Of a DNA stretch of 64,000 nucleotides, positions 5,218-51,702 are shown one piece after another (position 1 is the first letter of the stretch; each line of letters opens with the position of its first letter). A program made the position numbers and the translations under genes. Under the pieces are notes generated by a model, which ran no database searches, was not told the origin of the DNA, and saw only the letters and a program-made list of their open reading frames with translations. Origin of the DNA: Schmidtea nova (taxonomy: Eukaryota); NCBI GenBank assembly GCA_044892505.1, contig CM097883.1:448632001-448696000 (forward strand). The letters run 5' to 3'.

Positions 5218-5814
5218 TTAATTTTTAATGAGTTCGGTAAAAACTCCCGCCGGAGGAAAAATCTCCGTCAATAATGCTTCCTCAGTCATCTGATGTAGAC
5301 CATCGACTTGGATTTGTAATTGCTGGGCAAATAATTTTCTCTGTCTCCGCCGTTTCTGCCCAATGCGCTTGCGTTTCTGGTGCGCAGTCGCCGATGAAGT
5401 GGTTGAATTGGCTGGAGGAGCTGTCTCATTCCGACTTTCAATTAAATCGGGGACATCCGTTCCAATGGAGTTTACTGTCTTCTTTTCTGCCGTCCAAGCT
5501 TGGTACGTAATCGGACGGATTTGCTCTCTGAGTTCCTTCTCGATGTATGAGGCAGTTACGGAATGGAGGCATTTTCGGAGTTCTATCTTTGTAGCCTCCC
5601 ATTCCATTTGGTAATCGGCTGCAGTCTGTTGGGCGCGCTCGGTTTTACTGATTTGCTCCTTCATTCGGGCCGGAGCAAACCAGCTTTTGCGCAAATATGC
5701 AATCTGTGCCTCTGCTTTGATCAATTGTGCCTTGAGGAGACCCAATTCCTTGTCCTGGGCTCTCCGAATCCGCCACATCTTTTCCAATTCTTTCTGCATC
5801 AAATCTGGGTTCAT
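5218..5814 (-). CDS. LTR-encoded ORF L2 (198 aa), coiled coil plus Arg/Lys-rich motif; 3' LTR copy
   Basis: ATG preceded by ttatAG-a; translation identical to 31622-32218; QKRKRIGQKRRRQRK motif. Confidence 0.75.
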   Translation of the reverse strand: MNPDLMQKELEKMWRIRRAQDKELGLLKAQLIKAEAQIAYLRKSWFAPARMKEQISKTERAQQTAADYQMEWEATKIELRKCLHSVTASYIEKELREQIRPITYQAWTAEKKTVNSIGTDVPDLIESRNETAPPANSTTSSATAHQKRKRIGQKRRRQRKLFAQQLQIQVDGLHQMTEEALLTEIFPPAGVFTELIKN

Positions 5815-5998
5815 TCTATAATTTATTTAGGATATTTACTCTATGATTAAATGATGTGAAAAATGAAACTGATCATAGGGTTATTTGGTTACGAATATGA
5901 ATTATTAAAAACACAATACCAAAACTCAAAACAACATAACAAAAACACTGCTGAATATTAATATTTAATCACAATTTGAAAGATTTGACAATCAGTTC

Positions 5999-6439
5999 TT
6001 ATCTCCGAAACAGGCTATGTAATTCGCTGTTAATCGGTTTCTGACGGAGACGAGCCCAAGAGAATGAGGGTTGTCCTTTCTGGCACTCCTTGCCGAACGG
6101 TTTTCGTGGCAGGAATTCGTGTAGGCCTAGTTGGCATAGTTCCCGACGAGGGATATGCCCCCAATAAATTACACGGCTTGTCTGTCCATCGGTGTCCTTG
6201 ATCAGTACGACAAGTCGGCCAAATTTGTTTGAGTACGGCCTTTGAGAAATCGGCCAGTTCCATATCGAGAACGGGCATTTTCGGCCAAACCCCTGTCGCC
6301 ACTTATACATTTGGCAGTTGAGGGTTCGCAATATCGATGCTGGTAGATCCTTGAGCTGCGAGATATTTTCATTCCGCAGATTCCCTTGCTCCATATTCCG
6401 TAGTTGCGTTAATTGATTTGTAAGTTCAGCTGTCGACAT
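5999..6439 (-). CDS. LTR-encoded ORF L1 (146-aa version), unknown function; 3' LTR copy
   Basis: ATG directly after aatatAG; same as 32403-32882 but lacking 13 codons. Confidence 0.65.
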   Translation of the reverse strand: MSTAELTNQLTQLRNMEQGNLRNENISQLKDLPASILRTLNCQMYKWRQGFGRKCPFSIWNWPISQRPYSNKFGRLVVLIKDTDGQTSRVIYWGHIPRRELCQLGLHEFLPRKPFGKECQKGQPSFSWARLRQKPINSELHSLFRR

Positions 6440-8026
6440 CTATATTACATTTATTGGATATAAATATGAGTTAAGGGGGAAATTCGTTGATAATTTAATT
6501 ATGTTGCATATAATCACAACAGTTAAAAAATGAGATTAATTTTATTTCTCTCCGCCGTGATCTACCACGGTCGGAATAAAGAGTTCATAATTAGTCCTGT
6601 GCTATATACAGCATTCAGGAATTATCAAATTTAATCAAGATTTCCGCGCTATATACAGCGATCGGAGAATAACTTGGGAAACCGCATCATATACGACGAT
6701 CGGCCTATTTTTAGTAACTAATTTAATTTGGATTTTCCGACGCATTCCATCGCGATCGGAATTTATCGATATTAAAATTTTGTAGGCGAAATGCTGATTC
6801 CGAATGAAATCGGACTTTGGACTACGTTGGATTTTCTCATTCCAACGAAATTATTCAAATTTATTTTAGTTGTTGCTCACTGTTTTCCATGCGGGAGGTT
6901 CCCTTTCGATTCAATTTACCAAAAATTTAAAGACTGGGCATGCCCTACCATGGGGTGTCCCTCCTTATCCATCCGCCCTCCGCAATCTACATATTTGGCC
7001 CTCGACCTTCGTCCGTTGTGCAACCCAAAATTAAATAATTTGCAAATGGTCTGTATTAGACTAAAAATTCAATCAAATTTTCTAGATAAAACTTCACATC
7101 TAAATTAAATAATAAAAAGGTTGAACCGCCATGTGAGACCGTGAGGCCCCACAACGACGACTCGGACTCCCTCGCCGCGTGAGCAGCATAGGAAGTATAG
7201 CTATATGCATGAAAAATAATCAATGAAAAAATAAAATAACGTTTACATATAAGATTTTAATTAAATAAAAAATCATGGGTACATAAAAAATAACAATCAA
7301 AATTACGTTCCGTACCTGAATTCTGTTTTTTCAAAAAATTCTCGCTTCGTTAAATGAAATGTTACTTAAATCAAAGTTTAGTCTTGATTGTAAGTGAAAT
7401 GTAAAACGTCTTAAGTTGAGTTATGATTTTTGGATCGGTATTTATACTGATCCGTCTGGTTGGATTGACCAATCAGGATCAGGCCGTCCATCAAAGTATT
7501 TTTATTATTTTATTCTAATCTAAACATTATTTTGTTTCCTTTTCCGGTTTCTCGCTGGGTGGTCCTGATTTTCCAAGTAATTAATTAATTATTTGTACTA
7601 TTATTTTATTTAATTCTATTTTTTCTTATTTCAGGCCCCCTTTTGCGGTTGTTTACCGGTTTATTTTCAAAATTTCCTTTTACTGAAAATTTATCAATTA
7701 TTATTTGTCGTTTTATTGTTATTTTTAATTTGTTTTTCATGCTATTTTTATTTTTATTATTTCTTTATTGTTTCATGCTTTTGTTCGTTTTATTGTGTTT
7801 TTAGGTGATTTGGCGGGCCCAACATCACCCGGGGACCCCTAAAATTGCGTCCCGCAATTAATTATACATAAATACTTATATTCATCATCCATAAAAAGTT
7901 TTATAAAGTTATACATGCAAAGAAAATCACATAAGGTGATCGAATTTATACATATCATAAAGTTTGTCATTAAATAGTCAAAATGTAATGATTTGTCACA
8001 ATAGTTCGGTAAGTTTATCATAATGT

Positions 8027-8596
8027 TTATACAATTTGTTCGATCGTCTGGCTCGCTTGGGGTTGAGTTCGGGTCCTCTCGTTGATCATTTGTAGCTCGT
8101 AGTGGGTTTGAATGTGGTTGAGATGGCTCCTTATTCGTCTTTGAGCTCGGTTATCTCGTCTGGAGGTTTGGTTGTAGATTTTCTGCTTTTGTTTTAGGAT
8201 TTTTATTCTATACGAGGCAAGCAGGATTGTGATTGCGATGATAGTTGTGCTGACTGCTAGGATTATGATGATTGCTATGATCCATTTCTCTTGATATTCT
8301 ATTTCAGCTTGGGATAGGCTTTTTATGGGTTCTCTACCTTCTTTCAGGATTTTTCGGGTTTCTTCTAGTTTCAGTTGTTGGTTATCGAAGATTTGTTGGA
8401 TTTGATGGTCTTGATTGTGAGGGTATTTCTGTCGGAATTCGTTGATTTCTTTAATTACTTCTTCGATTAGGCTGTCTACTTTCTGATAGGTTTTGTCGGG
8501 TAGAACTCGTAATTGGGTTTCGGTTAGTTGTAGATCTTCTCTCTGTAGGGTAATGGTTGTTAACCATAGGAGTGTTGTTATTGCGAGCTTTCTCAT
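8027..8596 (-). CDS. Accessory small type I membrane protein (~189 aa from ATG at 8596)
   Basis: MRKLAITTLLWLTTITLQ signal-like N-terminus, helical ectodomain, TM WIIAIIIILAVSTTIIAITILLA, basic tail. The ORF-track start at 8629 is a GTG. Confidence 0.75.
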   Translation of the reverse strand: MRKLAITTLLWLTTITLQREDLQLTETQLRVLPDKTYQKVDSLIEEVIKEINEFRQKYPHNQDHQIQQIFDNQQLKLEETRKILKEGREPIKSLSQAEIEYQEKWIIAIIIILAVSTTIIAITILLASYRIKILKQKQKIYNQTSRRDNRAQRRIRSHLNHIQTHYELQMINERTRTQPQASQTIEQIV

Positions 8597-8671
8597 CTCT
8601 TTTATACATTGGTCAATACGGCTTGACACTTTTTATTTTACATAATTTATTTACACTTGGTTTTCGCACAT

Positions 8672-9733
8672 TTATACAAGGGTTTCGTTGGGTTCGTGAA
8701 AACCTTCGTCTTGAGGTTCCACCTGATTTATGGGGAGTGGCATCCATATTACCGTGCTCCTCCACATTTCGACTTCTTCTCGGTATGTGTGGGATATCTG
8801 GATCTCTTCATCTAATAAGTATTCCAGATAGTTCGCCTGTTCTGTTAGGGTTTCAATTTGTTTTTCTAGTTCTGCCAATTTTTTCTCTCTCTCTTCCTTC
8901 TCCATCATTTCGGTTACTGCTGCTGTGATTCTTGTTTCTTTTATTGGTATTGGTTTTTCTGCCAACTTCTTTCTCAGTTCTTCGTTTTCTTTTGTCAAAT
9001 TTGTTATGTTCTCTTCATAACTCTGCCTCGTTTCTTCCAGTCTTTCTTTAGTTCTTTTTAATTCTATTTTCTTCTGGGTAATCACTCCTTGATATCCATT
9101 TATGTCTCTTTTCATGTTTTCCTCCTTGTGATTCCACATTCCGGTCAGCATACCTTTTAACTGTTCTTGATTGGCTAAATCTTCTCCCATTCTTTGTACT
9201 TGATAAGTTAATTCTTTTATTTTCTTGGCTTGTTCTCTGATAAATTGTTGTCTTTTCTTACTCCATACTTTATTTGACGCTTCTTGACTGATCTTTTGCC
9301 CTAATTCCTCTTTTAATTCATCGATCTCTTTAAACAGTTTCCAATCATCGCTGTACGCTGTTCGTTCTATTATCTCCCTTGCTTCCTTGTAAGAGTCTTT
9401 TGCCTCTTTCTTCCAATATCTTGCTTGTTCTGTGATTGACTGAATCTTATGGTCTGTTTTTATTTGTTGTCTATCCCTATCCTCTCGTCGCTCTTTCATC
9501 ATCTCTTTGTAGTATTCGTTTTGTTGTCTTAGCAGTTTGTAGACTTCTTCTATTTTTTCTCGACTTCTTTGATTCGTTTTCTCGGCTTCTCTTAGTGCTT
9601 GGGTTTGTCTTTCCAATTCCTCCTGTTTTCGGTAATAGGCATGAATCCATATCCCAATCCGCTCCATGTGATTTCTGATCATTTCGTCTTGATGTACTGT
9701 TACTTCTTGTAAGGTTACTTCTATATTTCCCAT
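8672..9733 (-). CDS. Accessory long coiled-coil protein (353 aa)
   Basis: E/K/Q/R-rich helical composition throughout, same strand and codon bias as the polyprotein, ATG after tatAG-aa. Confidence 0.8.
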   Translation of the reverse strand: MGNIEVTLQEVTVHQDEMIRNHMERIGIWIHAYYRKQEELERQTQALREAEKTNQRSREKIEEVYKLLRQQNEYYKEMMKERREDRDRQQIKTDHKIQSITEQARYWKKEAKDSYKEAREIIERTAYSDDWKLFKEIDELKEELGQKISQEASNKVWSKKRQQFIREQAKKIKELTYQVQRMGEDLANQEQLKGMLTGMWNHKEENMKRDINGYQGVITQKKIELKRTKERLEETRQSYEENITNLTKENEELRKKLAEKPIPIKETRITAAVTEMMEKEEREKKLAELEKQIETLTEQANYLEYLLDEEIQISHTYREEVEMWRSTVIWMPLPINQVEPQDEGFHEPNETLV

Positions 9734-9845
9734 TTCTATAATTACAGATAAAAAGAATATTTAATCAGTTTTTATTTTTATTGTTTTTGATTATTTGTTA
9801 TTTCATATTGTTCTATACAGTTTATTTACATGGTTACTTCCTTCA

Positions 9846-11222
9846 TTACGCCAACCATCCTTTTCTGTCTGTTTTCTCATGCCTCTCCATCTCTATGTAT
9901 AGCGTGTCTGCATATAGTTGCTCCCATAGGTTTTCTTTCCTTATAAACATTGGTTCTCCTGCTGCTAGTCCGCATTCTGTCGTTGGTTTTTCGCTCGTAC
10001 TCGAATGTTTGTCTGTTTCAAAGAACTTTTCTACTGGTTTTCCCATACTTTTGATTCTTATAATGACTCCTATTTTCAAGGGCCATTCTATTAGGTCATC
10101 GTATTCTCCTTTACATAGTGAGAAGAATATTGACACGTGTGTTCCTTGTCCTCTTCCGTCTCCATTTGGGTATACTTTCAATCTTATTTTAACCCCGTTT
10201 TTCCATAAATAAAATGGTGGGCTTATTACTGCTGTTTTCGTCATATTTCTGGCTTCTGCTAGTTTGTCTCTGAAATCTGTTACTTTCCATAGGTAAGGTG
10301 CGATTGGTAAGTCCCTTCTTTCGTCAATTTCTCGTATTAACTGATTATATTGTATTTTCATTCCTTTTCCTAATTCTTCTATGGCTATTATTTTCTTTTC
10401 CATTCTTTCGCGAGTTAGTTCAAACTGCTCTCTTGTTTCTAGTAGTAAACTCATCATTATCTTATGTGATTCTACTTCTTTTTCTAATTTCTGGATTGTC
10501 TGTTCCGTTTCTTTTGTCGTTTCGTTTGTCATTTCCACATGCGTTAGTGCTGCTTCTTCTAGGTGTTGTTTCATTGATTGCCGCGTCCGCTTTTCTTTGC
10601 ATCCCTGCTTGTTATATGGACATTCTCTTGGTCTTTCGGTACATACTTTCCAATGTTCATGTAACTTTACTTCTTCTGTTATTTCGCAATTGTTTGGACA
10701 TTTACTTACATATTGTCTGCATACTTTCTCTTCTGTTATATTCAAGTGTTCCTCTTCGATTTTTCTCCTTGTTTCTCGAGTTTCACAATACTCGCATGCG
10801 ATTTCTTCTTCTTTACATTCTTCCTTGTGTTGTTCTCTCTTCTTTAGAGTTATTGTCTGTTGGCATTTCTCGCATTCGGCTCTCTTTTCCTCGCATTTTT
10901 CCATATGGTTCTCTAGATTGCTTATTTGTCCTTGCCATGTACAAGGTGTATTTACGCACTCCGTTATGGTGCTCATAATTTCTCTCTGGGTTGCTTTGTC
11001 CGTTCTGGTTTCGTTCAACACTATTCTTCCTTCTTTACATTCTGGGCATGTTGTTATTCCTGTTACATCTAGTTCTTGTATACATTTTGTACATATTCTA
11101 CATCCACATATCGTTTGTCTGGGTTCTCGTAATAAATTGTTACATTTTCCGCATGTGAGCCTCTTGCTCCATTTTCTGTTTTCTAATCTCAAAATTTCGA
11201 TTATTCGTTCTTCTCTGTCCAT
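9846..11222 (-). CDS. Element-borne complete TRAF-family protein (458 aa): RING, TRAF zinc fingers, coiled coil, MATH domain
   Basis: CGKCNNLLREPRQTICGCRICTKC...CPEC RING; CPYNKQGC zinc finger; MATH motifs YLWKVTDF, SPPFYL, LKVYPNGDGRGQGTHVSIFF, YDDLIEWP. Confidence 0.93.
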   Translation of the reverse strand: MDREERIIEILRLENRKWSKRLTCGKCNNLLREPRQTICGCRICTKCIQELDVTGITTCPECKEGRIVLNETRTDKATQREIMSTITECVNTPCTWQGQISNLENHMEKCEEKRAECEKCQQTITLKKREQHKEECKEEEIACEYCETRETRRKIEEEHLNITEEKVCRQYVSKCPNNCEITEEVKLHEHWKVCTERPRECPYNKQGCKEKRTRQSMKQHLEEAALTHVEMTNETTKETEQTIQKLEKEVESHKIMMSLLLETREQFELTRERMEKKIIAIEELGKGMKIQYNQLIREIDERRDLPIAPYLWKVTDFRDKLAEARNMTKTAVISPPFYLWKNGVKIRLKVYPNGDGRGQGTHVSIFFSLCKGEYDDLIEWPLKIGVIIRIKSMGKPVEKFFETDKHSSTSEKPTTECGLAAGEPMFIRKENLWEQLYADTLYIEMERHEKTDRKGWLA

Positions 11223-11314
11223 TTTCTACAATAATATATACATTCGACTTGTCATTTATTTTTGGTTTTTCTTGTTTTTATTTTTACATATTTACAGTTT
11301 TCCGCTTTATTTAT

Positions 11315-11671
11315 CTATGGCTCATTCGTTGAATCTGGTTCCGCTTCGTTGTTTAATCTATTTATTACCCAACTCATCCATCCTTCTTCGGATCCTTCTC
11401 TTTCTCCTCGTGTTAAATGGTTTATTTCTATTGCTTGTCTTTGATTGATATTGCTTATATTTTGATTTTCTCTGGTGAGCTCGGTTATCACTCTTTGTTG
11501 TTCTTCTATTCTGTGTAATTGTTCGAAACAGTTGTTATAACTTTCTGATAATAACATTTGTCTTTCCGCTAATTGGTTCTGTAATGAGTTGACTGTTCGT
11601 ACTAATAAATCACATTGTGCCTTCCATCTCATAGCCATAGTTATTTCAGTTGTTTCGTCCTGTTCGGTCAT
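11315..11671 (-). CDS. Accessory short coiled-coil protein (118 aa)
   Basis: Heptad-like L/Q/E pattern; ATG after atttAG-aa; first ORF after the polyprotein stop. Confidence 0.7.
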   Translation of the reverse strand: MTEQDETTEITMAMRWKAQCDLLVRTVNSLQNQLAERQMLLSESYNNCFEQLHRIEEQQRVITELTRENQNISNINQRQAIEINHLTRGEREGSEEGWMSWVINRLNNEAEPDSTNEP

Positions 11672-11795
11672 TTCTAAATTATATACATCATTTACTTTGT
11701 TTTCCTAGCTTTTTACAATTTTTATAATATCGATACCCATACTATTACGGTAATGCTTTGTTATTTACACTATTATTTACAGTCATAATCCGCCC

Positions 11796-14700
11796 CTATA
11801 CCATCATTATCGTCTTTTCCTCGTATCGTTCTTCATCTTCTATTTGTTTCCAGAATTCTTTACCTTTCGTTCTTCTTTGGAATTCTTGCTGTATCTCTTC
11901 TGGTATTTCTATTCTTTGCTTCATAATTTTAATATCTGGCCATTGTATGGCTGTCGCTTTGTTTCTCTTTCTGTATCTCCAATATATTATCATGCTTGTC
12001 GTCATTATCCCATATGCTATTAATATTCCTATACTGATTAATCCTATTACTGTTTTTCCACGGTTTGTTTCTCCTTTATTCTGGTTCGCTTTTATCTCAT
12101 TTTGGGTTTGAGCCTCTGGCTTCCTCTCTTTCTGTATTTGACTCTTAACTTTGTTCATTACTTCTTGTGTAGACCAATGGCGATTTAGTAGTTGTTTGAC
12201 GTTATTTTCTTTTGTTCGGTTTTCCACGTTTCCTGGTTCGATCTGCTGTTGTAGTTTCTCTGAGATCTGATATAATCCGCATTCTGGGTTTTCTGAACCT
12301 TTACTGGTGAAGGTACATATCGCGTATGTCCTATTTACTTCCATTTTCTTTAATTCGACTTTTTCTTTATTCTTTATTTCTTTACAGTGGGTTAGGTTGT
12401 CTTCTTCCCCTTCTGGGTTATGCTTTGTCCAACATATTCCTTTAACTGTCTGATCGAGTCCTGTTAATGTCAGAGTTCTTTCTGTCTTTGTTAATTCTTC
12501 TTCATCGAATTTCAGTATTTCTCCTTTTTGGAATGTCTTGCAATGCTCTATTCCCTCTTGGATTCCTCTCTCCCAGATACATATACTTCCTTCTTCATTC
12601 ATTTGTATTTCTTGTATTTCGATTTCCTTGTTTGTTTGTGATTCGTCGCTTGTCTGTACTTGGTATTCCTTCCTTGGTTCGTTGTATGTTCCCCAGCATA
12701 GTTTGTTGCTACTTGTTTTCCTTATTGTTATGGCCATTTGTTCTATTATTATTCCTTTATCGATGCGTTTGGACATTGCTAGTATTAATGCTATGCATAC
12801 GCACTCCTGTTGGGGTGATATTCTTTCTCTCGTTTTATTGGTGCTTCTCTCCCCTTCTCTTGGTTTGTTCGTTGTATTTTCCTTCTGAGTTGCTGGTCGA
12901 TCTATTGTGGTTTTGATCTCTTTCTTTGTTGGTTTTACTTTGTACCACTCAAGTCTGGGCGTTTCATTTTTTTGACATACGACTGTCTTAGGTAGCCCTG
13001 ACTTCTTTTCCTTTCCTATTATACATATCCGATGCATGATTCCTCTGTCCATCCCTTCTATTCGTACTATATCCTGGTCGGATTTTCTGATTATGCATTT
13101 TAGTGGGTTATCTTTCCCAATTGGTTCATCCTCTCTATTCCAGCATATTTTCTCGACCTCCTGGACATTTACTATTTTTATCCCTGTTTGTAGGTTTGTT
13201 GCTTCTTCCCTATTGATTAATGTCAATATTATTGTTAGACCCAACCATCTTGAACTCTGCGATAGGCTTCTGGTTCGCCTTTCATATTTTTTCTCTTCGC
13301 CTTTAGTCTCTTTCGTTTCCTTGTCTTTGTTGTTTATTCCTAGTTTTCCGCTTTTTGCTTCTTTCTCTTTTGGTTCTTCTCGTGCTTTTTCTTCTAGCAT
13401 TTCTACTCCATGGCTTGTATTATCTATATTTAGCCATTGGGTTGTTGATTTTCTTGGGCTTATCTTGCGTATCCATATAGCTGATAACGCGATTATTACT
13501 GGTATGGTTGCTGTTAATATTCCTAAGCCGATTAGTTCTTTAATTTCTTTATTCTCGTCTGTTTGTATAGGTTCGCTTTGGTTGAACATTATTCCGTATT
13601 GTCCCTTTAGTTTTCTCATTAATTGTTCTCGTTCCTCTTGCTTTCTTTTGACTTCTTTGATAACTTCTTCAGGTGTCCATTTTGCTTGAGGGTCGGTTAT
13701 TGTTTTTTCTGCGTCCATTTGTTCATTCGTTTGGCTTAGTTCCCTGAATTCGAGTTTCCTTGTTATTCCTTTCGATGTTGCGTTCGCTGGTGTATAGTAG
13801 GTTTCGCATCTTTCTTGTTGGTTTCCTAGTGCGTCCGTCTTTTCTATTGTACATACTTCATACTCGCTATTAAATTGTAGTTTTTCGATCTTGATTTCTT
13901 TATTTGTTTTTCTGCACTCTCTTGATTGTCTTCTTATATGTTTCTGAACTATTATCCAACATATCTCTAATGTTTTATTCTCTATTTTCCATAATGTCAG
14001 AGTTGCTGATGTCTTTTTCTCGGATTTTGTCGTAACTTCTTGGCTTATCGGTTGTTTATTGTTTTTAAAGGTAGTGGTGTACTTCGGTTTCCCTTTGTTT
14101 CGTTGTCTTCTTTTATTTTTTCGTGTTAACGTTTTAGTTCTGGTTCCGGATGAAGTGGTGTATATTCCGCATTCTAGGTCGTTTATCGTTATCTGATCAT
14201 TTTTCTTTACCAGACATATTTCGTAAGTTTGTTTACTTTCTAAACCTTTTATTTGTATCGTCGTTGCTCCTGTGCTTGTTCGACATTGTGGTGTCTTTCT
14301 TTCATTCGTTTCTTTTTCGTACTTCCTCCAGCATACTCCTTTCACATTTGGTTCTATTTCTTTTATTTCTAATGTTATGTTCAGTTTCTGCTTGATTTGT
14401 TTATTTCTCTTCCTCGTTCTCCTTCGGAACTTTATTACCTCTCCAGGTTGGAATGTTTTACATTTTGTGGTACCTTTCTTGTTCCTCTCTTTCTCAAGTA
14501 GGCATAGTTTGTACGTCTTGTCTGCTCTTACTTCGGATACTTTAATTACTTTGTTTGTTGTGGGTTTTCGACTTTTCCTTATTTCATTTACGCCGATTTC
14601 TTCGTCATTCCTCGCCCAACATTTTATGTTAGTGTTCTGTGTATCTTCCACTTCTGTTATTGTCATAGTTTCAATTTCTATTCCTTCCTCTAATCGTTTT

Positions 14701-20700: not shown

Positions 20701-23700
20701 ATTTCTGTATTTAAGTGGCGTATTTTTACCCACCATCTTCCTGCTACTTCTACAACTTCTTTGCTACATGCAATTACATGGACGTTTGTCCTTTCTATAT
20801 CTCGTCTTTGCTCTTGTGGTATCCATTTGATGTCGATGGCGGAAATGTTTGCTCCAGTGTCGATCATTGCTTCGATTTCTCTTCCGTTAATTTCTATTGT
20901 CGTGGTTAGTACTGGACCTGTGTTTGATGACATTACTGCGATCGTGTGTGTATCTCCTTGTGGATCTACGCTTCTACATCTTCTCATTTTATAATCTTCT
21001 GGTATCATGGGATATACATTTGTCATTGGCATCATTTGCATCGTGCTATTTTTTCCTCCTTGTAGTGGTTCTTGATACATGGTTGGTGGAGGTGCGTAAC
21101 ATTTCCATGCGTCGGCTGGATTCTTTTCGATGTATTGTGGTGCTTGGTTCTTATACACTTGTCCTCCTTTATAGTCGTCATCGTCGTCATCGTCGTCACT
21201 CGAATCATGTTGGGTTTTATATCCTTTCATCCTCTCCCATAAACCTTTTCTTTCTCTCTTGAGCTGTTGTCTTGCTTGTTCGTCATTCATTATCTTTTTA
21301 AATTTTCGTCCCACTTCTTCATCTGTTCCCTTCATTTTTGCTAATATCTTTAGGAGTCTTTTTATTCGGTGGATATCTTTTGAGTGACCGTGTAACACCA
21401 TCGTTTTCGCAAGGAATGGTAAAAATCCTACTACCATTTTCCAATTCACTTTCTTTTCTCTCTTGTAGATATCGAAACATGCTAACATTTGTGTTATTAT
21501 CACTCTGACGATTTGGATTATTAATATGACCCCCAGTATTCCAGCCATCATTTGTCCGAATATCAAGAATCTTCCCCACATTGCTTTCATCATGTTTTCT
21601 GTGGCTTTTTTGAAATGTGCTGGTGACAACAACAGTTCATAATTCGGTCCTTCTCGATAATCCGTTCCTCCCGTTATCGTTACGATATTTGACAATAATG
21701 CTTCTCTTCTCGCTGGGAATAATATATTCTGCCTTGCTGCTTCTAAATCCTTTGGACTATATATTCCATTGTTTGAGACATCCACGTCGCTAAATTGCCT
21801 ATCCTTTGACAACTGCATTAGCTCGAATTCTCTTGGTGCTATCACTTCGGATCTTCCTGGGAACATAACCCATTTACCATCTGGTTTCTGATAAAGCGGT
21901 CCATACGCATTACTACAGTTGAATGGATTTGGTTCAAACCCTGGTGGATTGATGATTCTCGTCACCGGTTGAACGTATCGTACTTTTCCTTTGTAATCGA
22001 TTTCTAACTCATTTGTACAGGTTCCAGGTTTCAACTGTGTTGTTGCTGCTAGCGACGCGTGTGTCTTTTCGCAAATGTATACATACATTGCTTCTCCAAC
22101 CACTCTCCCGAAATGTCCTTCTCTCAGTGGTAATAATGGCATCGCGCTATCTGGATTCGTAATCGCTACGGCCAATTTTGTCTTTAGTATTTCTCGATTC
22201 AGTATACAATCGTTATTGATCAGATCGTAATACACTTTTTGTAATGAGGCTTGTCCTCTATGGAATAGGAAATCCATTTTATTATTCACATACAAGTGTA
22301 GTTTGATATCCATTGTGTCGATTTTGGGTTTCGCATTTGGCACTTCTTGTTTTGACACATATATTCCTGGGTAATTCGTTTCGTATACCGTTGTACTACA
22401 CTTAAGGGTTGCTTTCCCTTTTATGAATCTCATTCCCACATCTTGATTTGTGGTTATCAATACTGTTGGTGTGGCTCTCATCTCTATTCGTTTTTCTCTA
22501 TGATCTGGTTTCAGTTGTCTTTTATTCTCTAAAGCTTCCTTGAGATGCTTTGCTCTAGCTTTGTCGTCATCGTCTTCTTCCTGAAACGTTTTTCCTTGGA
22601 TTTCGTCGAACTTTGCTCCTTGTAGCAGTTGTAACTGACATTCGTTCATCTTTGGTTTGTACACTAATGTTGACATTCCCGTTTGACACATGCTCCTGTC
22701 GATTTTACACATGGATAACGTTTTCATTTCTCCCGTTGTTGGTTCGAAGAATGCTTCGTAGCTTTTTAGTTCGACTATATACGTATCCATTACTACTAGG
22801 TTGGTTGCGGGTACTCCGAATATCGGGTAGGTTTCTCCTTGACAATATCCTTCTCCTCCCGTAATCCGTCCTGCTACATAGTACGTTTGTTGCATCATCA
22901 TTCCTGGCTTTCCTCTTATCTTGATTTTATCTCTTGTTGTTACTTCTCCATGTTTAAACAGTGCTTCGCAGTCTTCTCCTTGTAACACGATTGGTTCTCT
23001 TTCCGTTCCTGGCATGACAATTGCTGAATAATGTCCTCTCCCGCAGTAGAATGCGAATCTCGTCTTCTGCACTTTACATTCATTCACCATTGTCTTTATG
23101 AGTTCTGCTTCTTGATACACGTGGTACCATTGTTCCTTTTTAATCTTTTGCAACTCTACTGGAGTTGCATCTTTGCATTGCTCCGTACCTCTCAATGAAT
23201 ACTTTTCTCCTAACTTCATTTGGTCGCAATCAAACACTTCGAATGCTGTTGCGCTATCGGTGCTAATCATCCATATCAACATCATCATTATTATAGAACT
23301 CAAATTCATTGATGACTTCGCGTGTCCTGTTCCTGCTTGTTCTTTTTCTAACTCTTCCAATATTTTTTCGAATTTCTTTTTCATATTCTTCGCTTGCGTT
23401 TTCTTCTGGTTAGTTTTTATAAATGTTTCCCATCCTCCTTTGTTAATGACGTATGGTTCTATTTCTCTTGCTATAATTTTTGCGGTATTTTTTATATGTC
23501 TCTCTAATGCAGTGGGTTTTGGTCGACCTCTACTCAATGTCAACAAATTGTATATCGTGTATGCAATGGCTATTACGTATTTGTTATCCGTTTCCGCTCC
23601 TTCTGTCAGTTTCTTTATTAACATAGTGGTTCCTTGCCAGTCTAAATGGTTTGACTTCGTCTTTTCTTTTATGAATTCCGGTAAGATGGGTGCGATTGCG

Positions 23701-26700
23701 CTGTGTAGTGACTTCGCCTTTTCGCTTATCTCGGTTATACGCCAGTATTTTCTTAATTCCGGATCAATTATTGCCAATATTTCCATTATTGTTTTCGATA
23801 TCCATTCCTCCCCTTGACATATTGGTGTTGTCTCTTTTTCTTTCATCTCCGCAATTTTATTTAGTTTCCTTAAACATAATTCCCATTGATCTTGTCTCTT
23901 TTCGTCTTTATTTCTTACAACTACAGTTGTTGGGTCTGTCTTAGGTCTACCTCTAGGTCGTTTATCCATTCCTGTACCTGTTTCCACAAACCTTGTTGCC
24001 CGTCCTGTTTCTTCCGTAACATCTCTTGGTTCGTTAGCTCTTTCCTCTAACCATCTTTCCATTTCTTGCGTTAATTGTACGTTTTCGACATTCGCTCCTC
24101 TCGTTTCGTCTTCTGTCAAATCGTTTACTTCTTCTATTATTATTTCTTCTTCGACTTCTGTTTCTCCGGTGTTGGTTACTTGTATTGTCGTAGGTAATTC
24201 TTGTATTCTTTCGAAAATGTTATCGTCTTTTTCCTTTGTTAATTCGGTTAATTCTTCTATCATATCGTCGCTATCCGTTAAAATTTCGTCCACGTCGTAT
24301 GGTTGTGGTGGAGTCCTTTCTCTATTCCCTCTGGGTGTTGTCTCAGATCGTTTCGAACTTGTCCCTGGTGTTAGTACTGATTTCATCGGACTCGGCGTAC
24401 TTATACTTCCGTGTGGTTTACGGTTTTCTTCTTTATGTTTCAATGGTTGACCTGCTATTGCTTCTACTGTCAAGGTATTCATGAGATCTAGTTGTGCTGG
24501 CGTTATTCCAATTTCCAAACTGTTATCTAATGATCGTCCTTGGTGTTGTAAATGGAATGGTGGTTCGTATCTCAATTTCTTTTTAATATCTCGAATTTTT
24601 TCTGCTATTCCTACCCACAACTCTTCCTTATCCTTGTTTGGGTATATTATTCTTAAATGTACTTTCTGTGGAATTTCCTGCGAGAATTCTTGGTTTCTCC
24701 ATTTCCTAATTACATGGTCTAGTTGTTCCGGGCACCACTCGTTAACTCTTTTATATTCCGCGATTGCTTTTGCTACTTTACGCAAGCATGTTATATCTTC
24801 CCCATTTACCACGAAAAAATCTGCGAGACCCTTTATTAATTTTCTCTTACCGTGCGCATTAGTTTTTAATATTTCGACGAATTCTTCCGTTTTTTGCTTT
24901 TCCCTTTCTAACCACATGGCTGCTGTTTCTGGTCCATCTAGGTCTATTGGCGTAGCTTTCCTTGTCACCATGCAAACCCTTCCTATCTCTGGTTCGCAGT
25001 CATCTTCAATTCCTCTTTTATATTCTTCTTCATATTCCCCTTCTTTTGGTTCCCAACATTTTCCTTTCTCGTTCCATTGTTTTTCTACGGGTGTTCGTAT
25101 TCGTCTGTTGAGATTGAGTTCTTCTAATACATTTTCCCACTCTGGCCAAATTCGCCAATTTCGATAAATTTCTACTATTTGTTGTAATTTACGCACAACT
25201 TCTTTCCGTCGTTCCCGTTCTCTTTTCTCATCTTTAGCAGTTTCTCTTGGTGTATCGTCCATTCTGCTAACGTGGATTGTTTGGTGATTATCCCATATAC
25301 CGATTTTATATAATCGTCTCTCATCGTGATCCCATAATACATGTTCGTTGTATTGTATGATTATGTCGTCTTCCCATTCGTCTTCTGGTTCTCTTTGCAC
25401 TAGTGTCTCGTTGATGACATTTATTAATTCTTTAATGGTGCAATCCGCTACCACTTCAATTTCTTTGGTGTCTTCATTAGGCAATTCTACTGAAATTTTT
25501 AGATCTGTTATTTTCCCTTGTCTGAACATTGTTTTTCCCATTTTTGCGATTAATTTGTCGTGTGAGATCTGTGACCATCTCGTGTGGCTTGTGTCACGTA
25601 TGCACTCAATACATCGTTTCAATTTCTCGTATTCGCTTCTCATTAACTCTTTTCTATGTTTTTTGACTTGTGGTATGATTTGTTCTATCAGGGAATTTAG
25701 ATTCTTTCGCAAAACTCGTTCTTTCTCGTATTCTAACCGTGGTTTTATTCTCCGTTCGAAGCACGCGTTTGCTTCCCTTGCAACTTCTTGTAGGTTCTCT
25801 TCTTCTTTTTCATCACATATTGATAACAGAGTTATTTCTCCTGGCCATATACCTGTTTCTACTAAGTGCGTTCTTTTCTTTACGAGTCTATTCTGCGAAT
25901 AGATGAATTTGTTTTTGTATGAGCTCCCTAGTCTATCCTCTACCCATCTGTAGATATCGTCTGTAAATGGAGTTTTGATCCAGATTCTTGGTGTAGATGT
26001 ATTTATTATTATTGAGATGGTGTAATTGAGGAGTGGTTCCTCTATTAATTTCCCTACGTATCGATTCAACATGTCTACCTCCCGGTCTTGTAACCATTCT
26101 TTGTAGTTCATTTGTAGTAATGCTTTCATGAATTTCCGATATTGTTTCTTGTCCATGAACTCTTCGTTATATATTACCTCTAGCGAGTTATCTAATAATT
26201 TCTGGATTTCATCTACTTTTATCTGTGTAGGTTCTGAGGTCTTTATTACTTCTCTCTCTTTATTTTCGTCTTCGGATTCGTTTAATATGTCTCCTGCTAG
26301 GCTACTGATGTCACTATCTTCTTCCTCATCGGAAAACTCTCTGGTGGTATTTCTTAGCATATTAATATGTGCTATTTGGTTCGTTTCTCCTTGTATATTC
26401 TCCGTTGGTTCTGGTTCGTTTTTGTCAATTTCTGGTGTTGGTTCACTCTTGTCCTCTATTACTTCGACTTTTTCCAATTTCTTTCCCAACTCGTCAATCT
26501 CTTTTAAACGTCTTCTTATCATTTTTCCTTCAAATATTCGCCGGATTCGGGTTTCGTGACGTATTGGTGGTGGAATTTCTTCTGGTTCTATTTCTTTAAT
26601 TCTCATCACATTTCTTTTTGTTTCTACTACTCCCATGTTTTCCCATATATCCGTTAATTTCAATTTTACTGATGGTGCACCCTCTATTTGTAAGAACGCT

Positions 26701-28745
26701 TCTCTGGGCAGCTTTGTTACTCCTGGAATCATCTGGTTTACTTTGTTGAATAGTATTTCCACCTTTTCTTTTGCGTTATATTGGAATCGAAACATATGGT
26801 CGTTGGGCATGATTACCATCATTCCTTTTTTCCAAATTTTTCTTCTCTCTTCCTGGTTTATCTCGGTTTCCTCTCCCTTTTCTGCTTCTTTTTCTACTTC
26901 TTCATCTTTTTGTACTATTTCTTTTCGACTTTCGTTGTCGGCTGGATTCGGGTTTATCGAATTCATTTCCAGTGTGGTTTCTTTCTCGCGAGTGTCTGTT
27001 TGGTTTGTTGCTCTTAGCATGTTAATTCTTAGAGGTTGTCGTTCTCTTTCTTGCTGTTTTTGTTCATCCTCTCTTTGTATTCTTGCCCATTCCTGAGCGT
27101 GTCGTGCTTGACTTTCTCGATTCAATCGTTCGTTTTCGCTTTCTATTTTTCTCATCATGCTAATTTGCTGTTGATTGGTTTGCGGATTTCCTCTCGTCGT
27201 ATTGTTTATAAGTTCCGTCAATCTTTGGACTTCTTGCATTAAATGTATTTCTTTGGGGGTGGTTTTGTTCTGATTATTGTTATTATTGACTTGTTGGTTC
27301 CCATAATCTGGTCGGTTTACGGTATTTGCTTGATTTCCGTAATTTGGTCGGTTCCCATTACTCTGCCAGTTTCCTCGTTGATTACTTTTTTGTCCGCAAT
27401 TTCTTGAATAGTGGCCAGGTCGTCCGCAATTAAAACAGATTATTGTAGAACATCTGCTTTCCGAGTGTCCTTTAACTCCACATTTCCCGCAATTCAAATT
27501 TTGATAGCATTCTTGCTGCCAGTGTCCCAACTTTCCACATGTTTTACATTGTTTTGTTTGTCCTTGAGGGTTGTAGTTGTTTTGGTTTCCAAAGTTTTGC
27601 ACTTTATTTCCTTCATTCCTTCGTTGAGGGGGTGGTCGGTTTAATTGTTGCGAATTTGGAATATGATTGTTGAGATTTACTTCTGGTTCTGTTTGCGCTG
27701 TGTCCATGGCTAAATAAATTCTGCCTTCGCTTCCTATCATATGCAATTCAAATCGGTTAGCTGTTTCTAACGCTTGATCTATGGTTTTGCATCCTTGGCA
27801 TCCAACTTGTGCTCTTATGTCGGGTCTTCTTAGTCCTCCTATGAAGATAGCTGCCATTAACTCCTCGTTTATTGGACCTCCATCCTTGAATACCGATTTT
27901 GCTAATTTTTTCAGTTCGCTCGCGTATACCGCATTAGATTCATTCATCTTTTGTTTCCTCATTGAAAATTCTATGAATGCCTCGCTTAGCACTTTATTTA
28001 TTCCAAATGTTTGTTGGAAAAAATCCTTTATCGCTGTCCAGCTTGTAGGTGGATTGGTACCATTTTTTGCTTCCAAATATAGGTCCAATGCACTATCTTT
28101 CAAGTATAACTGTATTCTGCTTACCGTTGTTTCAGCTTTCCATTTGCATACTTCCACGAATATGCCAAATTCTTTTAAAAAGGTTTCTAATTTACTCGCA
28201 TCTCCGTTGAACGGTTCTCCTGAAAATTTATCCTTTATTTCTTCTCTTGGTTCACCCATTTCAATTCCGCTGTCTTGAGTTATTTTACTTTCGTTTCCTC
28301 TTGTTTCTAGTTCGTTGTTATGTTCGTCTTCCGTTTTACTCGAGCTTGAATCGCTTTCTGTTTCTCTTATTCCTTCGTTATCTGATATTATACTTTCGTT
28401 ATCACTCGCGTTGATTTCTATCTCTGGTTCTACCTCGTTTTCTACTTCTTCGATATTATCGTTGTTAGTTTCGTCGCTCTCTGTTTCACTTGCTTGGTTC
28501 TCCTTGGGTTCGGCTTGGTTTTCTTTGTTACTTGAGCTGTTGCTTATTATTGACAATTTATCGTTCTCGGTAATCGATTTATCTCTTATTATTTTCCTCG
28601 ATTTACTCCCTTGTGGGTTATCTTTGCCGGCTTTCTGCTTTTTTGTTGATTTTGTTGTAGTACTAGTTTTGTCTTTTTTATTACTGTTGCTATCGACTTT
28701 CTTTTCCGTTGGCTTTACTACGACACTCTTTGCTCCTTTTCTCAA
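11796..28745 (-). CDS. Giant Gag-Env-Pol-accessory polyprotein (5649 codons, no internal stop or frameshift)
   Basis: Single open frame with all motifs listed below. The track start is TTG; first in-frame ATG is at 28259; an in-frame TAG lies at 28781-28779. Confidence 0.95.
   Translation of the reverse strand: [5649 protein letters not shown]
11979..13250 (-). other. Polyprotein module: second internal-signal/FN3-like/TM membrane protein (about 3 FN3-like repeats)
   Basis: Signal-like [18 protein letters not shown]; repeats of CW...I.I.......Y.[28 protein letters not shown]. Confidence 0.65.
13471..15245 (-). other. Polyprotein module: first internal-signal/FN3-like/TM membrane protein (about 4 FN3-like repeats)
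   Basis: Signal-like [17 protein letters not shown]; VCW...[15 protein letters not shown], VCW...[15 protein letters not shown], ICW...[37 protein letters not shown]. Confidence 0.65.
15720..17235 (-). other. Polyprotein module: two blocks of ankyrin repeats C-terminal to integrase
   Basis: [50 protein letters not shown] match the G.TPLH.A ankyrin pattern with ~33-aa spacing. Confidence 0.85.
17530..18580 (-). other. Polyprotein module: integrase
   Basis: HHCC zinc finger ([10 protein letters not shown]...CLTC), DDE core ([21 protein letters not shown]), GPY motif (GRGPYEII). Confidence 0.95.
18850..20100 (-). other. Polyprotein module: reverse transcriptase and RNase H
   Basis: [40 protein letters not shown], YIDD (19646-19635), [22 protein letters not shown]. 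Confidence 0.97.
20590..20900 (-). other. Polyprotein module: aspartic protease
   Basis: [12 protein letters not shown] (DTG at 20861-20853) and CIIGTD. Confidence 0.92.
21400..23309 (-). other. Polyprotein module: signal peptide + chuvirus-like (class III, gB-like) glycoprotein + TM
   Basis: [22 protein letters not shown] then FEVFDC...EQC...[19 protein letters not shown]...GYCQG...TNYP...YVNNK...DCILNREIL...GEAMYVYIC...CTNEL...QPVTRII; the order of cysteines and motifs matches what I recall of chuvirus G; TM at ~21570-21480. Confidence 0.8.
23421..23888 (-). other. Polyprotein module: Bcl-2-like helical domain
   Basis: [20 protein letters not shown] closely parallels the Bcl-xL BH2 region (LEPWIQENGGWDTFVE); BH1 is divergent. 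Confidence 0.55.
27396..28230 (-). other. Polyprotein module: Gag capsid plus three CX2CX4HX4C zinc knuckles
   Basis: [12 protein letters not shown]...[11 protein letters not shown]...W...F; RKQKMNES...Y...L; knuckles [42 protein letters not shown] at 27548-27396. Confidence 0.92.
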
Positions 28746-29361
28746 GGGGATTACTTTTGTATACTCAATTTTCCTGTTCTATCTCTTATCGTTTTTCTGA
28801 TTCTTCTTGCTTGATTGATTGATTTGATTGATTTGTATATCTAAAATACAAAGGTCCTCAACGATACATTATTGTTATCGTCGCGCTTTTATTCCCTTTC
28901 TTTCGGGATTACTTATTACTGGGTTTTCATTATTTCCCAATTCCCAGATTCCCCTTTATTTTTAGTCTATTTAAATTATCTATAGACTGGTCACAATTAT
29001 CTATTTATGTCGTAATAATTATCTATACTTTATCCAATCAATTACTTTTCCCACAGTCTCCCAATTTATTGGTCGCTCGAGCGCTCTAATTCCCTGAGTC
29101 TTTCTGACTCGTTTATCATTATTTTATCATTTCTATTCATTATTCCCTGCTAGCAATTGTTTTTACTTATTCTGCCGGTTGTTCCGGTCAGCCCAAAAAA
29201 TTTTTACTATTCTCCTTGCATGCTTTACTTAAGGTTGCATAATCAGCTTTTCTCGCATTCTCTTAACTACTAGTGCGCACTACTCTAAATCTCGTCGACG
29301 ATTACACTATGGGTCTATATTCCCTCTATTACTATTTATCCGGATATATCTATAGTTCACT

Positions 29362-29585: not shown

Positions 29586-29624
29586 AACGCCTAGCTAGGT
29601 CATTCAATATGGCTCATTGGCCTC

Positions 29625-30363: not shown

Positions 30364-30825
30364 TTATAAATATACAATAATTTTATCGTCTATCCTCAGG
30401 TTGCACATAGGACATAGGTCGCACTTGCTGGCACATATCTTACAAAAACGAAAATGTCCGCAAGGTAAAAACATAATTTGTATCTCGCTATCCCCACATA
30501 TATAGCACTGTCGGTATTTTTTCGCTGCTTCTACCCCTTGCGCCCTCCATCGATTGTATGTTGAGGTTAACTGTTGTTCTATTTGCCTGCACTTAATATT
30601 TAATTCTGCATTTTCTAATCGTGTTCTGTACCATTTGTAGCGGGTCTCTATGTCGATTTTACTTATTCTTTCTGTTATCTTTATTAATTCATCTGTTTCC
30701 TCAGTCTGTGTTGTGGGTTCTTGAAATTCAATTTCTCTAAATCGGTTTATTTCCTTCCCAATCGTTTCTAATGTTTCGCTTTCTGTGTTGAGGAATTCTT
30801 CGATTTCTTTCAGTTTTTCCTCCAT
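30364..30825 (-). CDS. Accessory ORF (153 aa): coiled coil plus C-terminal IAP/MDM2-type RING finger
   Basis: CYICGDSEIQIMFLPCGHFRFCKICASKCDLCPMCNLRIDDKIIVYL at the extreme C-terminus; ATG after tttattcAG-taa. Confidence 0.88.
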   Translation of the reverse strand: MEEKLKEIEEFLNTESETLETIGKEINRFREIEFQEPTTQTEETDELIKITERISKIDIETRYKWYRTRLENAELNIKCRQIEQQLTSTYNRWRAQGVEAAKKYRQCYICGDSEIQIMFLPCGHFRFCKICASKCDLCPMCNLRIDDKIIVYL

Positions 30826-31129
30826 TTACTGAATAAATAATCGTTTTAACTCTGTTATTTTTATCGTTTTTAAGGTAGTAATATGTTTCGTTTTGTATCT
30901 TTTAATATTTAACTCCCCCCGTGTTTCTGAAAATTGTCGTCCCGACAAATTATGCATGCATTTTAATTTTTAAATTCACTTTTGTTCACTGCCGTGTTGT
31001 TTATTTAATTTTTATACAATAATTTACATTTAATTATAACCTTTCTGTTTTTTATTAAATTAATTGACCCGAGCATTTTAAACCTCTCTGCAGATTTTAC
31101 GTTTACATTTTTCCGATAAAACGAAGTTG

Positions 31130-31147
31130 ATCCCGGCTGAGCCCCCA
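31130..31147 (-). promoter_or_regulatory. Primer binding site, tRNA-Pro type
   Basis: Minus strand TGGGGGCTCAGCCGGGAT matches the classical tRNA-Pro PBS TGGGGGCTCGTCCGGGAT at 16/18; begins 6 nt after the 5' LTR end. Confidence 0.85.
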
Positions 31148-31621
31148 AATTTATGCTGGGTTCATGGAGGGGTTAGATGAAAAATGCTCTAACAATGACT
31201 AGGGATCCCTCATCCATGATCATGCATAAAATTGCAATTTTACACTCAAGCGCCCTTGATTATTTCCCTATATAATCAAGTTGGTGATGCGCAGGGTGGT
31301 TAAACAATGATGGGCAGGTGAGCACTATTGCTAGTACTACTCCCCATTTATGTTTACGGGTCCATTGCTGCCGTTAGAAGGACTTACGCTTTAATCATCC
31401 CCTTAGGTATTCCGTGTTAATCTTTCAGAAAATTCATTTTTATCATTACTCAGTCTGCGAGAAGTATTTCAACGAATGCTCGCTTAATTATTTAATTATC
31501 TCTATTCGATATTTTGTAAACTGAATTTATACTTTTGTTCTATCTTTATTTAATCATTGGTAAAGTTAATTAAATCAATTTAAATGAACAATGAGATTCT
31601 TAAGCCAATGCAACAATTTAT

Positions 31622-32218
31622 TTAATTTTTAATGAGTTCGGTAAAAACTCCCGCCGGAGGAAAAATCTCCGTCAATAATGCTTCCTCAGTCATCTGATGT
31701 AGACCATCGACTTGGATTTGTAATTGCTGGGCAAATAATTTTCTCTGTCTCCGCCGTTTCTGCCCAATGCGCTTGCGTTTCTGGTGCGCAGTCGCCGATG
31801 AAGTGGTTGAATTGGCTGGAGGAGCTGTCTCATTCCGACTTTCAATTAAATCGGGGACATCCGTTCCAATGGAGTTTACTGTCTTCTTTTCTGCCGTCCA
31901 AGCTTGGTACGTAATCGGACGGATTTGCTCTCTGAGTTCCTTCTCGATGTATGAGGCAGTTACGGAATGGAGGCATTTTCGGAGTTCTATCTTTGTAGCC
32001 TCCCATTCCATTTGGTAATCGGCTGCAGTCTGTTGGGCGCGCTCGGTTTTACTGATTTGCTCCTTCATTCGGGCCGGAGCAAACCAGCTTTTGCGCAAAT
32101 ATGCAATCTGTGCCTCTGCTTTGATCAATTGTGCCTTGAGGAGACCCAATTCCTTGTCCTGGGCTCTCCGAATCCGCCACATCTTTTCCAATTCTTTCTG
32201 CATCAAATCTGGGTTCAT
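31622..32218 (-). CDS. LTR-encoded ORF L2 (198 aa); 5' LTR copy
   Basis: Identical translation to 5218-5814. Confidence 0.75.
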   Translation of the reverse strand: MNPDLMQKELEKMWRIRRAQDKELGLLKAQLIKAEAQIAYLRKSWFAPARMKEQISKTERAQQTAADYQMEWEATKIELRKCLHSVTASYIEKELREQIRPITYQAWTAEKKTVNSIGTDVPDLIESRNETAPPANSTTSSATAHQKRKRIGQKRRRQRKLFAQQLQIQVDGLHQMTEEALLTEIFPPAGVFTELIKN

Positions 32219-32402
32219 TCTATAATTTATTTAGGATATTTACTCTATGATTAAATGATGTGAAAAATGAAACTGATCATAGGGTTATTTGGTTACGAAT
32301 ATGAATTATTAAAAACACAATACCAAAACTCAAAACAACATAACAAAAACACTGCTGAATATTAATATTTAATCACAATTTGAAAGATTTGACAATCAGT
32401 TC

Positions 32403-32882
32403 TTATCTCCGAAACAGGCTATGTAATTCGCTGTTAATCGGTTTCTGACGGAGACGAGCCCAAGAGAATGAGGGTTGTCCTTTCTGGCACTCCTTGCCGA
32501 ACGGTTTTCGTGGCAGGAATTCGTGTAGGCCTAGTTGGCATAGTTCCCGACGAGGGATATGCCCCCAATAAATTACACGGCTTGTCTGTCCATCGGTGTC
32601 CTTGATCAGTACGACAAGTCGGCCAAATTTGTTTGAGTACGGCCTTTGAGAAATCGGCCAGTTCGGTCCTCCTCGATAGAGTATTTGGTCGTGCCCTCCT
32701 GTCCATATCGAGAACGGGCATTTTCGGCCAAACCCCTGTCGCCACTTATACATTTGGCAGTTGAGGGTTCGCAATATCGATGCTGGTAGATCCTTGAGCT
32801 GCGAGATATTTTCATTCCGCAGATTCCCTTGCTCCATATTCCGTAGTTGCGTTAATTGATTTGTAAGTTCAGCTGTCGACAT
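32403..32882 (-). CDS. LTR-encoded ORF L1 (159-aa version); 5' LTR copy
   Basis: As 5999-6439 plus TGGHDQILYRGGP. Confidence 0.65.
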   Translation of the reverse strand: MSTAELTNQLTQLRNMEQGNLRNENISQLKDLPASILRTLNCQMYKWRQGFGRKCPFSIWTGGHDQILYRGGPNWPISQRPYSNKFGRLVVLIKDTDGQTSRVIYWGHIPRRELCQLGLHEFLPRKPFGKECQKGQPSFSWARLRQKPINSELHSLFRR

Positions 32883-51700: not shown

Positions 51701-51702
51701 AA

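Follow-up and report, generated by a model that had tools for sequence, protein, structure and literature searches.

A 64,000-nucleotide stretch of Schmidtea nova DNA (assembly GCA_044892505.1, contig CM097883.1, positions 448,632,001 to 448,696,000; hereafter the window) contains a long terminal repeat (LTR) retrotransposon on its minus strand, at positions 34267–4750, which measures 29.5 kb between its outer LTR ends and holds the whole of the finding described here. This giant element, a young Burro-like Ty3/gypsy retrotransposon, probably expresses its open reading frames (ORFs) by cis-splicing, with one AUG-free leader exon from the LTR joined to a choice of acceptors in a scheme like that of complex retroviruses. 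The interpretation rests on acceptor-like sites at the ORF starts, on their conservation in four families of related elements, on a donor-like site behind the TATA box, on a depletion of AUG that ends at this donor, and on a genomic copy of a related element that carries an exact splice junction. All features of the element given below lie on the minus strand.

A sequence-only reading of the window had listed seven accessory ORFs that begin directly behind an AG, and all seven contexts are present, with ATGs at 32882, 32218, 30825, 11671, 11222, 9733 and 8596 and with 0, 1, 3, 2, 3, 2 and 0 nt, respectively, between AG and ATG. Its description of 3′ ORFs packed with 75–125-nt spacers likewise agrees with the measured lengths of 124, 92, 112 and 75 nt. 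Seven of seven had been judged unlikely by chance, and the joint probability, calculated as a product of shuffle nulls over the 60 nt upstream, is 4.6e-6; when the 628 other sense ATGs of the element serve as the reference, of which 193 have an AG within 3 nt and 70 a YAG (pyrimidine-AG), the AG frequency gives 0.31^7 = 2.6e-4. An acceptor-like signal before every accessory ORF is thus confirmed, with six sites that read YAG and a weak seventh at 8596 (AAAGAG, not YAG). Across 51 sister copies, which belong with the window element to family A, an AG always lies within 3 nt of this start, and the base at −3 is G in 34 copies, T in 12 copies and A in the other five. Because the ORFs at 32882 and 32218 sit within the LTR, each has a second copy in the 3′ LTR, at 6439 and 5814.

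Related copies were sampled by taking 60 of 100 listed primer-site loci, plus downstream stretches for 14 of them, and these loci sort into several families. For a cross-family test, the first ATG of each accessory ORF was scored in one representative each of families B–E, excluding polyprotein pieces, frameshift fragments, low-complexity ORFs and ORFs outside LTRs. An AG was found within 3 nt of 19 of 29 starts (6.9 expected) and a YAG within 7 nt of 23 of 29 (5.3 expected), and with family A included the latter count becomes 29 of 36, against 6.4 expected. Family E is distant from the window element (one shared ORF is 29% identical, and the family-E LTR ORF has no significant match to LTR ORF2 of the window), and it is positive at 7 of 9 starts on its own. 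A T occupies position −5 in 26 of 29 acceptor-like sites, and YAG combined with this T is the profile of a splice acceptor. In 21 of 22 inner spacers there is an ATG upstream of the ORF ATG that splicing would remove. The polyprotein also has such a site, absent from the sequence-only list: an eighth acceptor-like TTTTAG (G at 28841), with no ATG in the 581 nt behind it (28260..28842). An acceptor-like site and then 506–581 ATG-free nt precede the polyprotein in four of five elements scored, where about seven ATGs would be expected in each, and in the fifth the match fell at a wrong site and an ATG lies 39 nt before Gag.

The LTR would supply the other half of such a splice. A TATA-like box at 33882..33889, with an ATTGG/CCAAT-like element upstream, would place the transcription start near 33858, and the predicted leader exon (33759..33858) is about 100 nt long and contains no ATG. 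It ends at a donor-like site, CAG|GTACGG, followed by a T-rich run (33753..33758), which the sequence-only reading had missed. Under a fixed rule, 11 of 14 LTRs outside the E type have a donor-like GTA with a T-rich run 102–157 nt downstream of the TATA box, and the other three have such a site at 99–109 nt with a T content narrowly below the threshold (0.43 versus 0.45). In family E, the TATA motif was found in 35 of 61 loci, giving 37 matches, 36 of them with a downstream GT(A/T)AG; 33 of these 36 sites lie 40–72 nt before a conserved hairpin core, while leader length ranges between 46 and 339 nt. In 24 distinct family-E leaders, ATG shows the strongest depletion among the 64 trimers (15 versus 91), 12 of the 15 fall in two leaders with a probably miscalled donor, and equal lengths behind the donor hold 111, so that the depletion stops at the donor. 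This pattern suggests a retained leader exon, since an outron that is thrown away could keep its AUGs without harm. Another conserved donor, behind the primer site, was looked for and not found.

Two further observations concern this part of the LTR. Behind the donor, a double hairpin is predicted at 33565..33640 (z −4.8 versus shuffles), with hairpins at a like place in other LTR types; it is a candidate packaging or structural signal, and an Rfam search returned 0 matches. The family-E leader, from TATA box to donor, is hypervariable and lengthens through tandem duplications (e.g. L013, L053, L058 and L113–L132), the upstream unit of which is without GT.

There is also a spliced family-E copy (G000:C2:138221959-138238033), in which the leader end is joined, in both LTRs, to the base after the AG of the LTR ORF. 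At this position the unspliced sisters L054 and L109 contain a GT..AG intron of 3853–3854 nt with no microhomology at its ends. Both LTRs of the spliced copy are 1973 bp long and identical, a CTAC target duplication flanks the element, and the first ATG past the predicted start is that of the LTR ORF. The exact junction demonstrates cis-splicing to the first acceptor in family E, and it is thus in this related family only that the complex-retrovirus arrangement of an LTR leader with its major donor spliced to an ORF acceptor is found in use.

This copy came from searching the genome for leader ends not followed by G. The search that returned it gave 11 matches, comprising two junctions (the two LTRs of this one element) and nine unrelated sequences, and another gave 20, of which 17 were leader tandem duplications and three were point changes. 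The leader-end and post-stop-motif searches found no junction to a distal ORF start. Messages spliced behind the primer site would lose that site and would not be copied in this way, so the absence of distal spliced copies says little. An internal deletion in a short family-C copy was considered as a possible splice and ruled out by a 17-nt overlap, and four runs of unknown kind, kept as contigs, held no splice junction at the predicted sites among the 15 of 46 joints listed, a result that speaks neither for nor against splicing.

The inner 3′ spacers share a second signal. The motif TGTA-H-A-W-A starts 14–21 nt after the stop in 21 of 23 of them, where shuffling predicts 0.19, and follows the stop at 0 of 18 other ORF ends (LTR ORFs, the RING or 160-aa ORF, and the last ORF). 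In the window the spacers lie at 11672..11795 (a TGTAAATA pair at 11781 and 11769, 14 nt past the stop; AG ending at 11674), 11223..11314 (TGTAAATA at 11296, 18 nt; AG ending at 11226), 9734..9845 (TGTAAATA at 9830, 15 nt; AG ending at 9736) and 8597..8671 (TGTAAATA at 8655, 16 nt; the weak AAAGAG). A second TGTA stands 8–13 nt further on in 21 of 22 inner spacers, the lengths of which range from 40 to 284 nt. In the 51 sister copies the motif is found 14–20 nt after the stop in 200 of 203 spacers, and five insertions of 21–30 nt all fall between motif and acceptor. The fixed distance from the stop and the location of these insertions tie the motif to the upstream stop.

Strict matches to the motif number 11 in sense and three in antisense orientation, and all 22 first motifs carry A at positions 6 and 8, which the search did not impose. 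The first motif ends in AUA in 20 of 22 and in AAA in two, and it fits UGUA-N-AUA, the Pumilio word, in the position of a 3′ untranslated region (3′ UTR). A terminating ribosome covers roughly 15 nt, and the post-stop UGUA-A-UA is likely to be a site for a host RNA-binding protein of the Pumilio/PUF type that lies just beyond it. A CFIm-type poly(A) reading of UGUA is disfavoured, because planarian cleavage and poly(A) sites are described, in a portion of PMC5068929, as U-rich and without UGUA.

Several results weigh against leader splicing as the general mode of expression in the window family, or against parts of the evidence for it. Seven of the 36 starts have no near YAG, and family C has none at the slot of site 8596. 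The 7-nt limit for YAG was chosen after the data had been seen, and the P values treat the homologous slots of families A–D as more independent than they are. In family A, variability at the signal columns is not significantly lower than in the rest of the spacers (3/52 versus 37/351 columns, p = 0.45). The window-family donor is modest, reading CAA|GTACGG in 8 of 11 sister copies, with the leader exon end of the window copy being private to that copy, and one family-C leader holds two ATGs at the predicted cap. The leader-end searches, made with part of the exon-end variants of families A and E and with none from B or G, recovered no spliced copy for family A (five matches, all unrelated, then 0) or family D (0 matches). 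None of the 51 sister copies lacks a spacer, and 0 of 6 deletion junctions at 61 loci flanking the primer-binding site are GT-AG. The sole exact junction to an ORF start uses an acceptor within the LTR, in a distant family. Finally, the spliced family-E copy carries a second deletion, of 153 nt relative to L108, that runs as GT..AG; it begins at a post-stop motif and stops at an AG 37 nt inside the following ORF, which a Pumilio site does not predict.

That deletion is an argument for treating each ORF as a cassette exon, with an acceptor before its ATG and a donor (T|GTAAAT) 15–21 nt after its stop, the spacers being short introns or the downstream cistrons being spliced out. Such a scheme would be compatible with the leader splice, and under the 50–55-nt rule of junction-dependent decay the short distance from stop to donor would avoid decay. 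A GT..AG outline fits only 0.37% of random deletions, the place of the motif is set by the stop, and the post-stop motif appears to have served once as a donor. The deletion is, however, a single event; its AG is not one at an ORF start, and a microhomology deletion lies within 20 nt of it. Read as a donor, the first motif shows A at both +5 and +7 in all 22 cases and never G at +5, so that the PUF word fits it better, and searches at two other post-stop motifs gave no spliced copy (two unrelated matches in one, then five point changes and two unrelated matches). Spacer-less copies were not found, and a common terminal acceptor before the 3′ LTR, present in families A, B and D, is absent from E and G and so is not conserved. 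On balance, we consider cassette splicing of this kind improbable. An internal promoter for each ORF, with the AG as part of a start or translation context, is less credible still, and we would be surprised to see it confirmed. It can draw on TGTAAATA, which matches the forkhead DNA word, but the motif is anchored to the upstream stop rather than to the downstream start, the 21–30-nt insertions in five copies separate it from the acceptor, strict matches favour the sense strand, and the YAG and −5 T profile is acceptor-like. Precedent exists in foamy viruses, which have such a promoter besides that of the LTR according to PMC7828637.

The sequence-only reading had left a choice between a common LTR leader and a spliced-leader (SL) operon. 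The former is favoured by the kept donor, the AUG-depleted leader and the spliced family-E copy; the latter receives no positive support. AATAAA occurs in 13 of 22 inner spacers (12.3 expected by shuffle, i.e. chance level) and the T fraction over the 120 nt behind the stop is 0.18–0.33 in 22 of 23, so the intercistronic gaps lack the 3′-end signal of an SL operon, and the acceptors are not free of an upstream cis donor, which in part of PMC4558846 is reported to outcompete the spliced leader. Cis-splicing is thus better supported than SL operons. A hybrid, with the LTR leader cis-spliced to near acceptors and the distal 3′ cluster resolved operon style by host SL trans-splicing, has some points in its favour: the 75–125-nt spacers and the AG adjoining the ATG would suit it, no junction to a distal ORF start was found, and passages of PMC10899757 and PMC12582326 document SL trans-splicing in Schmidtea and, in the latter, acceptors common to cis- and trans-splicing in parasitic flatworms. 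The chance level of AATAAA, the T-poor spacers as compared with the U-rich cleavage sites described in part of PMC5068929, and an upstream donor that is used in a related family nevertheless make the hybrid unlikely. There is, lastly, the view that the AGs are chance occurrences in an A-rich strand, as 31% of the other ATGs would suggest and as site 8596 may illustrate; the shuffle and cross-family counts, and the exact use of the same kind of site in a related family, largely refute it for six of the seven sites, and we give it almost no weight.

Under the favoured leader-splicing interpretation, transcription would start about 31 nt behind the TATA box, and RNA left unspliced, keeping the hairpin and the primer site, would serve as genome. 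In other molecules the donor at 33758 would be joined to one of eight acceptors, so that the ATG of the chosen ORF becomes the first. We infer that the same splice would operate in the window family and that the leader would also reach the acceptors of the RING ORF, the polyprotein and the 3′ cluster, 3–25 kb away. Transcripts spliced to this cluster would presumably run to the 3′ LTR and end there, rather than being cut in each spacer, with a UGUA site behind their stop that could dose or protect messages with kilobases of untranslated cistrons after the stop. Behind LTR ORF1, families A, B and D have ATTAAA or AATAAA together with a tract rich in T or GU, and the only ORFs of the element with poly(A)-like signals are those of the LTR and the RING ORF.

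An ATG-less open frame of 173 codons (window 28260–28780), in frame with Gag, precedes the polyprotein ATG, and the corresponding frame in families B and C has 153 codons. It may encode a non-AUG N-terminal extension or be a by-product of T-poor sequence. An AUG supplied by the spliced leader was considered as its start codon and rejected, as two families have a stop only 17–18 codons past the acceptor and the frame of the window copy does not match at that point.

The element is likened to Burro1–4/GYPSM1, the giant gypsy-like LTR retrotransposons of Dugesiidae, by the published description of their architecture (PMC6431247). Its 29.5 kb is close to their roughly 30 kb, though slightly below the phrase "exceeds 30 kb" of PMC6431247, and it shares their single polyprotein of about 5000 aa (here 5487 aa) in the Pfam order Gag, in-frame mononegavirus-like Env, protease, reverse transcriptase, RNase H, integrase and ankyrin. 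Accessory ORFs and TRAF/MATH cargo are likewise common to both (PMC6431247); here the ankyrin, MATH/TRAF and RING domains all have Pfam support, TRAF/MATH is a separate downstream ORF, and two ORFs lie within the LTR. BIR or BCL2-like motifs have no match in the window element by Pfam profiles, and BIR is present in a family-E ORF. The Burro section of PMC6431247 is silent on how the accessory ORFs are expressed (the string "splic" occurs three times in that paper, and two passages containing it concern other matters), and PMC8532177 does not contain the string. An account of splicing of Burro accessory ORFs was not found in the literature covered, which included portions of PMC11410931, PMC2770079, PMC7346339 and PMC8629364 but not the primary Burro paper and two planarian SL papers, so that absence from print is not established.

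Complex retroviruses such as HIV and HTLV use an LTR leader, a major donor and alternative acceptors. The element resembles them in its predicted LTR promoter, short non-coding leader exon and major donor and in several candidate acceptors, and foamy viruses, per a passage of PMC7828637, make Pol and Env from spliced messages. It differs in having a Ty3/gypsy-type domain order, with the Env-like domain between Gag and the protease instead of gag-pol-env; eight non-overlapping ORFs over 25 kb, each starting at an acceptor-like site (the polyprotein 581 nt behind); a donor upstream of the primer site and of two LTR-borne ORFs; and a repeated post-stop motif. The element probably works like a complex retrovirus, yet by gene order it is not a member of the Retroviridae. 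The adenovirus major late unit joins one leader to many acceptors across a long unit and uses alternative poly(A) sites. A single predicted leader and many candidate acceptors are shared with the element, the difference being its poly(A)-like signals, confined to the LTR ORFs and the RING ORF. SL operons of nematodes and flatworms, as portrayed in parts of PMC12582326 and PMC8629364, share the co-oriented ORFs about 100 nt apart and the acceptor adjoining the start, in contrast to which the element has an upstream cis donor and inner spacers without enriched poly(A) signals or U-rich tracts.

Planarians have thousands of Burro copies, with apoptosis and ubiquitin genes among their cargo, and some planarian "TRAF family" transcripts may be derived from them. 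If leader splicing is correct, a retrotransposon reached complex-retrovirus-style splicing independently, with a repeatable way of adding cargo genes; the exact junctions are now defined for lookup in existing planarian long-read RNA, and the stop-anchored UGUA motif offers a natural test of escape from long-3′-UTR decay, or of Pumilio dosing, in stem-cell-rich animals. A broader hypothesis, which we advance tentatively and which may well fail, is that Burro-like elements independently evolved a complex-retrovirus programme in which one hypervariable AUG-free leader is spliced to at least eight acceptors spread across 25 kb, together with a portable junction module (stop, 14–21 nt, twin UGUA site, acceptor, ATG) that makes captured host genes (TRAF, IAP, RING) expressible and decay-proof, the far ORFs perhaps being handed to the host spliced leader.

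The remaining features complete the description of the element. Its 5′ LTR (31154..34267; 3.1 kb, TG...CA, 4-bp target duplication CTTT) differs from the 3′ LTR (4750..7824) by one mismatch and a 39-nt in-frame indel, and the latter contains second copies of LTR ORF1 (6439–5999) and LTR ORF2 (5814–5218). LTR ORF1 with its acceptor AG at 32884–32883 (32403..32884; 159 aa; ATTAAA and a GU-rich tract after the stop) and LTR ORF2 with its acceptor AG (31622..32221; 198 aa) have no match in Pfam. They are followed by a primer-binding-site-like 18-mer at 31130..31147, presumably of tRNA-Pro type, the pattern of which has 2954 matches in the 1.25-Gb genome, and by the RING-finger ORF with its acceptor AG (30364..30830; 153 aa). 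The polyprotein (11796..28259) contains, in order, a zinc knuckle, a Monjiviricetes-type fusion glycoprotein, protease, reverse transcriptase, RNase H, integrase and ankyrin. Behind it are a 118-aa ORF with no Pfam match (11315..11671), the TRAF-like ORF with TRAF zinc fingers and MATH (9846..11222; 458 aa), a 353-aa charged ORF that is probably coiled-coil (8672..9733), and the last ORF (8027..8596; 189 aa), which has a hydrophobic N-terminus with one probable membrane segment, as judged by eye, and is without the post-stop motif. The TRAF ORF is encoded by at least 92 copies at 96–100% identity, and a homology search with it yielded no planarian homologue among five matches.

Some structural details of the copies were also noted. 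Directly before the 3′ LTR, at 7825–7860, lies the GC-rich block TTGCGGGACGCAA, a short inverted repeat, which is retained in 10 of 10 elements with a located LTR start, and a plain polypurine tract is absent. The terminal 200–330 nt of the LTR (window 31154–31480) are similar across families, the rest of the LTRs being unalignable. Two tandem arrays with 32-nt and 29-nt units occupy window 29330–29944, in the internal untranslated region that separates the RING ORF from the acceptor-like site of the polyprotein. Short elements (L025/L042/L043 and L030/L108/L109) combine a shortened polyprotein with a longer accessory cassette that includes TRAF and BIR+RING (IAP-like) ORFs and carries the same junction signals. 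In L108, the spacer after a 515-aa ORF has a genomic run of about 24 A behind repeated TGTAAAAAG words, like the relic poly(A) tail of a captured message, and in L077 a family-E LTR start lies within another family-E LTR, directly behind the hairpin, resembling a nested insertion. Elsewhere in the window are two ordinary decayed LTR elements with reverse transcriptase and RNase H pieces (40680–45613, which also has integrase, and 51081–57465), and a separate TRAF zinc-finger ORF fragment at 58430–59041 on the minus strand, the first ATG of which has no preceding AG.

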